Below, in pieces: positions 1-660 of a stretch of DNA of 6,301 bases (within the stretch, counting starts at the first letter, position 1; every line of letters begins with the position of its first letter). The position numbers and the translations under genes are program-made. The DNA is taken from assembly GCA_038826135.1 (NCBI GenBank), contig JAWBON010000066.1, positions 1 to 6,301 of the forward strand, written 5' to 3'. The notes beneath the pieces are model-generated. The model saw only the letters and a program-made list of their open reading frames with translations, had not been told where the DNA came from and searched no databases. The DNA comes from Candidatus Odinarchaeota archaeon (GTDB lineage: Archaea > Asgardarchaeota > Odinarchaeia > Odinarchaeales > Odinarchaeaceae).

Positions 1-660
1 CCCACCCCCAAGTCTAGCAGTATCCTCAGCAAGCCGACAGTTAAGCTGCCGGATTTAACCAAGGACTTACCAGACCGGCTACGGACGCTTTAGGCCCAAT
101 AATCACCCCGACCACTCGAGGAGCTGGTTTTACCGCGGCGGCTGGCACCAGCCTTGCCCTCCCCTTATTCCACCGGCTCCTTAGGCCGATGAAAAGCCAT
201 CTTCATCAGACGGCACTCAGGATGACCCCATCACACTTTCGTGTATTGTGGAGGTTTCGCGCCTGCTGCGCCCCGTAGGGCCTGGGACCTTGTCTCAGTT
301 CCCATCTCCGGGCTACCACTCACATGGCCCGTACCTATTATAGGCTCGGTGGTCCATTACACCGCCGACTACCTAATAGGCCGCAGTCCCATCCTTAGGC
401 GACTTTGGCGAGCATGGCGCCAAAATCTTTTAGGAGAAATACCATTCCAGGCCATTTCCCCTATCGGGTATTAGCCGCAGTTTTGGGGTATGCAACCTTA
501 AATAAAGTTACAATACTTTCCCACGGTTATCCCCGTCCTAAGGGCAGGTTAACTACGTGTTACTGAGCCGTCTGCCGCTCCCACCATAGCTTGGGACGCG
601 CGACTCGCATGGCTTAGCCTCATCCTGATAGCAGTCGGGTCTAGCAGGATCAACTAGTAT
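1..660 (-). rRNA. rrs: 16S rRNA, 5' part (continues off the left edge); contains a 36-nt insertion at 482-517
   Basis: Minus strand begins ATACTAGTTGATCCTGCTAGACCCGACTGCTATC and contains the conserved archaeal blocks ACGGCTCAGTAACACGT, GGGATAAC...CTAATACC, CTACGGGGCGCAGCAGGCGCGAAAC and GTGCCAGCCGCCGCGGTAA. The 5' end (~660) is placed by analogy to archaeal AUUCCGGUUG. Confidence 0.99.
482..517 (-). other. 36-nt BHB-type intron in the 16S helix-8 loop (about E. coli 161/162)
   Basis: RNA sense: CCGUGGGAA|AGUAUUGUAACUUUAUUUAAGGUUGCAUACCCCAAA|ACUGCGG. Central helix UGGG/CCCA with an AAA bulge on each strand. Cutting after the second bulge nucleotide gives CCGUGG-GAAA-CUGCGG. Confidence 0.85.

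Follow-up and report, generated by a model that had tools for sequence, protein, structure and literature searches.

The window considered here (an entire contig of 6.3 kb) belongs to an archaeal MAG of 1.26 Mb, which is distributed over 105 contigs and is 93% complete. The host is a hot-spring Asgard archaeon of the Odinarchaeia: the nearest relatives of its PyrB locus are found in MAGs of Candidatus Odinarchaeota (J65_bin.29) and Odinarchaeia (RPA3), in agreement with the earlier impression that the lineage is not one of the Thermoproteales. One end of the contig carries the 5′ part of a 16S rRNA gene (Table 1), and the remainder of that gene is unassembled in the host genome according to BLAST and DNA searches of the genome. 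Upstream of the 16S rRNA gene by about 500 nt, on the opposite strand and hence outside the 16S-23S spacer, lies a tRNA-Ala(UGC) gene; the spacer itself measures about 160 nt in the congeners (L002-L004) and is devoid of tRNA genes. Directly downstream of an interrupted tRNA-His gene, a stand-alone gene for a LigD-type 3′-phosphoesterase domain is encoded, while the other genes of the window specify ferredoxin, PyrB, PyrI and the A-type ATPase subunits E, F and A.

Table 1. Features of the 6.3-kb window that bear on the 16S rRNA insert and its genomic setting
Feature	Position in window	Strand	Evidence or remark
16S rRNA gene, 5′ 660 nt (model positions 1-603)	1..660	-	cmscan RF01959, 553 bits, E 1e-161; ends with the contig
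Mature helix-8 3′ strand CUGCGG	475..480	-	Pairs with CCGUGG 521-526 after predicted splicing
3′ bulge AAA, predicted cut between 482 and 481	481..483	-	Merges with CU into a 6-nt bulge in longer context
Predicted 36-nt intron	482..517	-	Begins at base 3 of the 5′ bulge and ends at base 2 of the 3′ bulge; exactly the nucleotides between the two predicted cuts
Intron strand CCCA of central helix	484..487	-	Invariant in 5 sequences despite interior identity of 52-75%
Intron inner hairpin: stem of 8-9 bp with an AUUU loop, on a GUA/UAC base with one bulged U	488..516	-	5-sequence alignment
5′ bulge AAA, predicted cut between 518 and 517	517..519	-	Unpaired in all folds, between central helix and inner stem (G(U/C)A across the species)
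Exon strand UGGG of central 4-bp helix (E. coli 156-159)	520..523	-	Pairs with CCCA 484-487 in minimum-energy folds of 4 species; invariant in 5 sequences
5′ half of 16S processing stem with BHB	696..726	-	GUGC helix strand 710-713, bulge AAU 707-709; read in the window
tRNA-Ala(UGC) gene	1171-1245	+	
LigD-type 3′-phosphoesterase domain gene	1842-2375	-	PF13298, 1e-37
tRNA-His gene	2348-2482	-	Interrupted
tRNA-His T-arm intron	2371-2392	-	Strict 22-nt BHB: CACG/CGUG, bulges GGA and AAU, outer helix of 4 bp

The alignment of the 16S rRNA gene to RF01959 (window 660 to 1, minus strand) sets 37 nt against a single model position within the loop of helix 8. The original prediction of 36 extra nucleotides in the GAAA tetraloop of this helix is thereby borne out, the two predicted cuts bracketing window positions 482-517 exactly. 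Read on the minus strand, the RNA is CCG-UGGG-AA^A-GUA-U-UGUAACUUU-AUUU-AAGGUUGCA-UAC-CCCA-AA^A-CUGCGG (with carets at the predicted cuts), which stands in the wider context ...GGGGAUAACCG-UGGG-AAA-GUAUUGUAACUUUAUUUAAGGUUGCAUAC-CCCA-AAA-CUGCGGCUAAU... of the transcript. In E. coli numbering (checked on rrsH, taken by accession), the GAAA loop corresponds to G159, A160, A161 and A162, and the predicted intron is therefore placed after A161. The insert holds no open reading frame, as had been stated, and a BLAST search of the host genome with the insert found no paralogous copy, so that nothing points to its recent transposition from a different intron.

Folding recovered the architecture described earlier, viz. 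a hairpin on a GUA/UAC stem and a UGGG/CCCA helix flanked by two AAA bulges. The 4-bp helix, the AAA bulge and the hairpin together constitute the minimum-energy structure in 4/4 species, and in a 95-nt context this shape persists in silico up to 70 °C, albeit with a central helix of 3 bp (GGG/CCC) and a 3′ bulge of 6 nt. As had been claimed, the outer exon-exon helix is weak: the AAA bulge of the 3′ site is present, and the helix closing it in register consists of one G-C pair, a C.U mismatch and then a C-G pair, the alternative being the 6-nt bulge closed by CCGU/GCGG, by which the best 95-nt fold retains four native helix-8 pairs. Since the 3′ bulge can merge with CU into 6 nt, the 3′ side of the motif is relaxed, and the modelled motif with its weak exon-exon helix fits the relaxed class rather than the strict or canonical BHB.

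The motif as such was dropped as evidence, as minimal BHB motifs (3 + 4 + 3 pairs) are no commoner in the genome than in its reversed sequence (18,439 and 18,732 motifs, respectively). The fold energy of the insert is likewise unremarkable (z = -1.42). With motifs unenriched and an ordinary fold energy, the case for a 16S intron rests on comparative data, namely on the position in a universally conserved loop, on a register by which the consensus is regained and on the pattern of conservation.

The comparative data were assembled from 16S rRNA gene copies located in the genomes via BLAST and DNA searches. All three congeneric Odinarchaeia genomes carry an insert at the same site of helix 8 (42, 47 and 35 nt), as does a contig from a hot-spring metagenome (36 nt), such that, with the window, five sequences with inserts of 36, 42, 47, 35 and 36 nt are available. 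Plain GGGAAACUG is found at this site in about 20 other Asgard 16S rRNA genes, including those of the sister family of the same order. Furthermore, when 400 Asgard genomes were searched with a pattern allowing 10-40 extra nt in the loop, this genus alone matched (the longer inserts of two congeners exceed this gap range), and a scan of metagenomes for the exact 19-nt junction gave one true match alongside four chance matches. A pattern with a longer gap (165-195 nt) gave no match in a limited sample of Bathyarchaeia genomes (5 + 121). Removal of the insert yields CCGUGGGAAACUGCGG, the form of the loop in all insert-free relatives, with GGGAAACUG regained exactly; this product folds in silico as helix 8, a stem of 6 bp capped by GAAA, at -8.0 kcal/mol. 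The claim that cuts placed 2 nt into each bulge, leaving 1 nt beyond, regenerate the GAAA loop exactly is accordingly upheld; GAAA is also the upper-case consensus of the Rfam archaeal SSU model.

The principal alternative to splicing is that the insert is a lineage-specific expansion segment kept in the mature 16S rRNA, where helix 8 would be extended by the AU-rich hairpin via an asymmetric internal loop (GAAA / CCCAAAA). This explanation is considered unlikely, even though several observations fit it. Within the genus the insert is fixed: all five sequences have it and no insert-free 16S allele was found among them, unlike the case of the 23S intron described below. The splice motif has a weak outer helix, and forcing native helix 8 while retaining the insert costs only 1.5 kcal/mol in silico relative to the optimum. 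Nevertheless, a retained insert would destroy the GAAA loop, which is invariant in the roughly 20 other Asgard 16S rRNAs as well as in the archaeal consensus, and the hairpin tips, being variable, offer no conserved GNRA loop in its place. Nor is the site one of variable length: GAAA occurs in all insert-free relatives examined, and no 10-40 nt insert in the helix-8 loop was encountered outside the genus in the 400 Asgard genomes.

The pattern of conservation within the insert bears on the same question. Between species, identity is 97-99% in the flanking 16S exons against 52-75% (with indels) in the interior of the insert, the rate of change of the latter exceeding that of the rRNA more than tenfold. 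The junction letters UGGG-AAA-G...C-CCCA-AAA (5′ junction AAAG, 3′ junction CCCCAAAA) are invariant in the five sequences while neighbouring insert positions diverge, and an expansion segment would need neither complementarity of CCCA to UGGG nor AAA bulges in exactly the register by which the consensus is regained. In the five-sequence alignment, 98.7% of the cells of the 15 modelled pairs are paired, a figure that falls to 25-45% once the partners are displaced by 1-3 columns, although with five closely related sequences such statistics are indicative rather than strong. For the inner hairpin (10 aligned pairs, 98% of cells paired), compensatory double changes affect four pairs (for example, U-A to C-G beside the bulge); changes that keep the hairpin are, however, also expected of a structural element retained in the ribosome. 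The central helix is invariant throughout and, never varying, receives no support from covariation.

If retention were true, an Asgard archaeon would possess an SSU expansion segment; no expansion segments were found in the SSU rRNA of Lokiarchaeota (PMC7594248). Odinarchaeum ribosomes would then bear an expansion hairpin in lieu of the otherwise universal GNRA tetraloop of helix 8, with an altered contact between helices 8 and 14 at the subunit interface, which appears slightly more doubtful still. The helix-8 tetraloop docks on helix 14 near bridge B8.

Apart from the insert, the genome encodes the enzymes that its splicing would require. The catalytic alpha subunit of EndA aligns without gaps to the alpha subunit of Aeropyrum pernix (3P1Z_B) across the specific loop (RKPK as against EKPR) and displays the Y/H/K context together with the L1/CSL loop. 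A second subunit (beta), lacking the histidine, and the RNA ligase RtcB are also encoded. Alpha/beta endonucleases with an L1/CSL loop cleave relaxed motifs, and Asgard archaea have been reported to possess such enzymes (PMC5829648). The weak exon-exon helix at the 3′ site makes the motif a relaxed one, for which an enzyme of broad specificity would be needed; the crenarchaeal-type alpha/beta endonuclease of the host fits this role and, by analogy with the substrate range described previously (PMC5829648), may accept such a motif. The gene of the alpha subunit is split between two contigs (G000:C48:1-420, minus strand, and G000:C72:2-274, plus strand) whose ends share 42 identical residues (about 126 nt), an overlap by which the contigs could be joined. 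RtcB lies in an open frame of 995 aa (G000:C16:2586-5357; L038, L039), in which model positions 1-50 and 49-426 are set apart by about 1.4 kb, a gap of the size of an intein.

The setting of the 16S rRNA gene shows that the pre-16S RNA is itself a substrate of the endonuclease, by virtue of a canonical BHB in its processing stem. In a complete congener (L003), the flanks of the 16S rRNA pair as an 11-bp helix, GUGC/GCAU with UAU and AAA as bulges, and a helix of 13 bp; the 5′ half of the corresponding stem is present in the window. The processing-stem BHB resembles the insert motif in residing on the same precursor RNA, in its 4-bp helix and two 3-nt bulges (GUGC/GCAU; UAU or AAU; AAA) and in its enzyme, which is the one proposed to cut the insert, while it differs in that the whole 16S rRNA, and not an internal segment, is excised and circularised.

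Introns are present elsewhere in the genome. The 23S rRNA gene harbours a 30-nt insert (G000:C25:15404-15433, minus strand) between ACUCUCUUA and AGGUAGCC (the site is also given as ACUCUCUUA followed by AGGUAGCCAAAUGCC), which constitutes a strict hBHBh′ motif of 3 + 4 + 9 bp with bulges UAA and AAA. It recurs in the congener G002 (L033) and is absent from the congeners G001 and G003, in which the sequence equals the predicted spliced product. Its site corresponds to E. coli position about 1925, a classic rRNA intron and homing site. Within the 23S rRNA, no insert was found that is present in the whole genus and absent from all outgroups, the 23S intron being a polymorphism within the genus. 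Among tRNA genes, introns were called in 23 of about 31 (by ARAGORN, whose boundaries are approximate only). The tRNA-His gene of the window, with its strict intron in the T-arm, was missed by both Rfam and ARAGORN because it is interrupted; a second insert in this gene, of about 35 nt after the anticodon, failed the strict BHB scan.

In view of how it folds, how it is conserved and which enzymes the genome encodes, the observed insert is interpreted as an ORF-less archaeal intron of the BHB type in an Odinarchaeal 16S rRNA gene, removed by the tRNA-splicing enzymes, to which a probability of roughly 0.8 is assigned. Cleavage, ligation and the absence of the insert from mature ribosomes are what we infer from these data. 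In the precursor, U156-G159 of the exon would pair with CCCA of the intron, with the intron hairpin stacking on that helix, so that each splice site would lie within an AAA bulge and the bulge at the 5′ site would be closed by the intron hairpin. EndA (alpha/beta) would cut after the second A of each bulge, whereupon RtcB would join the exons, the GAAA tetraloop would be re-created and helix 8 (CCGUGG/CUGCGG) would form. The released intron of 36 nt would probably be circular.

A further possibility is that the insert is excised without re-ligation of the ends, which would leave the 16S rRNA in two pieces (about 160 nt and about 1,340 nt) that helix-8 pairing would keep associated. The cleavage signals would be the same as for an intron, and bacteria are known to have rRNAs fragmented by the removal of intervening sequences. 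This explanation is nonetheless regarded as very improbable, as RtcB is encoded, the ends would meet in a tetraloop closed by 6 bp of which two are G.U (a fragile junction in a thermophile), and the products of BHB cleavage in archaeal rRNA and tRNA are normally ligated (PMC4496867). That the insert is an assembly artefact, or that this 16S copy is a non-functional pseudogene, might be suspected of a 6.3-kb contig in a 105-contig MAG whose 16S rRNA gene is cut at the contig end, but it can practically be dismissed, since inserts with differing interiors occupy the same site in four genomes, each assembled independently, and in a metagenome contig, one of the insert-bearing congeners (G002) is a single contig of 1,418,269 nt, and the full-length 16S rRNA genes of the congeners score 1527-1533 bits across the full model and form part of a 16S-23S operon, with a single 16S copy found in each genome. 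Additionally, the rRNA operon of LCB_4 (the closed genome of Ca. Odinarchaeum yellowstonii) has been confirmed by long-range PCR together with Nanopore sequencing (PMC9246712).

As a spliced intron, the element can be compared with several known systems. Archaeal 16S rRNA introns have been catalogued at 13 loci, i.e., 374, 548, 722, 781, 803, 901, 908, 919, 978, 1093, 1205, 1213 and 1391, mostly in Thermoproteales, and the catalogue includes hairpin introns of less than 50 nt (Jay and Inskeep, 2015, PMC4496867). With these ‘HP’ introns of Thermoproteales, Desulfurococcales and Aigarchaeota, the Odinarchaeal insert shares the lack of an ORF, a length below 50 nt, the single hairpin, a location in conserved parts of the 16S rRNA and a BHB formed between the exon and the 3′ end of the intron, and it would presumably likewise be cut by EndA and joined by RtcB (PMC4496867). 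It departs from them in its Asgard host, in its site at E. coli 161, far 5′ of all 13 loci, in its AU-rich interior and in its weak outer helix, which makes for a relaxed motif (PMC4496867). The statement that no catalogued 16S intron locus lies near position 161 thus agrees with the published range of 374 to 1391 (PMC4496867), and that of a new insertion site holds for the literature searched and for the 400 Asgard genomes searched; no mention of an rRNA intron in Odinarchaeia, or in helix 8, was found in that literature. The insert is therefore most probably a known type of element at an unpublished site (E. coli 161, the helix-8 tetraloop) in a new lineage (Asgard), its splicing being predicted from the sequence.

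A further parallel is the intron of the host’s own 23S rRNA, which shares with the 16S insert the organism, the size class, the AAA of the 3′ bulge and a central helix formed by exon bases with the 3′ end of the intron, and which in the same manner exactly restores a universally conserved sequence. The two differ in that the 23S intron has the strict motif and is polymorphic (missing in two of four species), whereas the 16S insert, a fixed feature of the genus, has no good outer helix. Relaxed tRNA introns (HBh′/hBH/BHL) of Crenarchaeota and Asgard archaea resemble the 16S insert in that one splice-site bulge is poorly closed and in their dependence on a heterotetrameric EndA of broad specificity, which this genome encodes (PMC5829648); they are cleaved by the alpha/beta enzyme (PMC5829648), while the substrate proposed here is an rRNA.

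The presence of a strict 23S intron and of tRNA introns together with the 16S insert suggests that Odinarchaeia have spread mini-introns into rRNA as well as tRNA. Small 16S introns spliced by EndA are known mainly from Thermoproteales, to which the insert would add both site 161 and an Asgard lineage, and the case bears on how freely the tRNA-splicing machinery serves in the closest archaeal relatives of eukaryotes. For practical purposes, an insert in the V2 region will, for this group, interfere with the alignment of 16S sequences, the design of probes and quality filters based on length. Furthermore, it would represent a natural relaxed substrate of defined sequence, available in five natural variants, on which the specificity of Asgard EndA can be tested.

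Several observations on rRNAs were made along with the above. All four Odinarchaeia 23S rRNAs lack a 19-nt hairpin (for example, CCCGGGGUGACCCGGUAGU) at alignment columns 610-629 (position about 606 in the 23S rRNA of G002), which is present in 4/4 other Asgard 23S rRNAs of the alignment. In another Asgard family, the 23S rRNA of G017 (L046) contains five inserts of 32-106 nt at universally conserved core sites, one of which falls inside the sarcin-ricin loop (between AGUACG and AGAGGAAC) and is common to G027 (L042); these look like further Asgard rRNA mini-introns and are regarded as candidates. Matches to the 16S rRNA are split by about 95 nt near query positions 303-309 in G040 (L009) and G031 (L030/L025); in G026 (L021/L028) the interruption, at query 512/513, spans about 830 nt. 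This suggests the presence of other 16S introns in other Asgard families.
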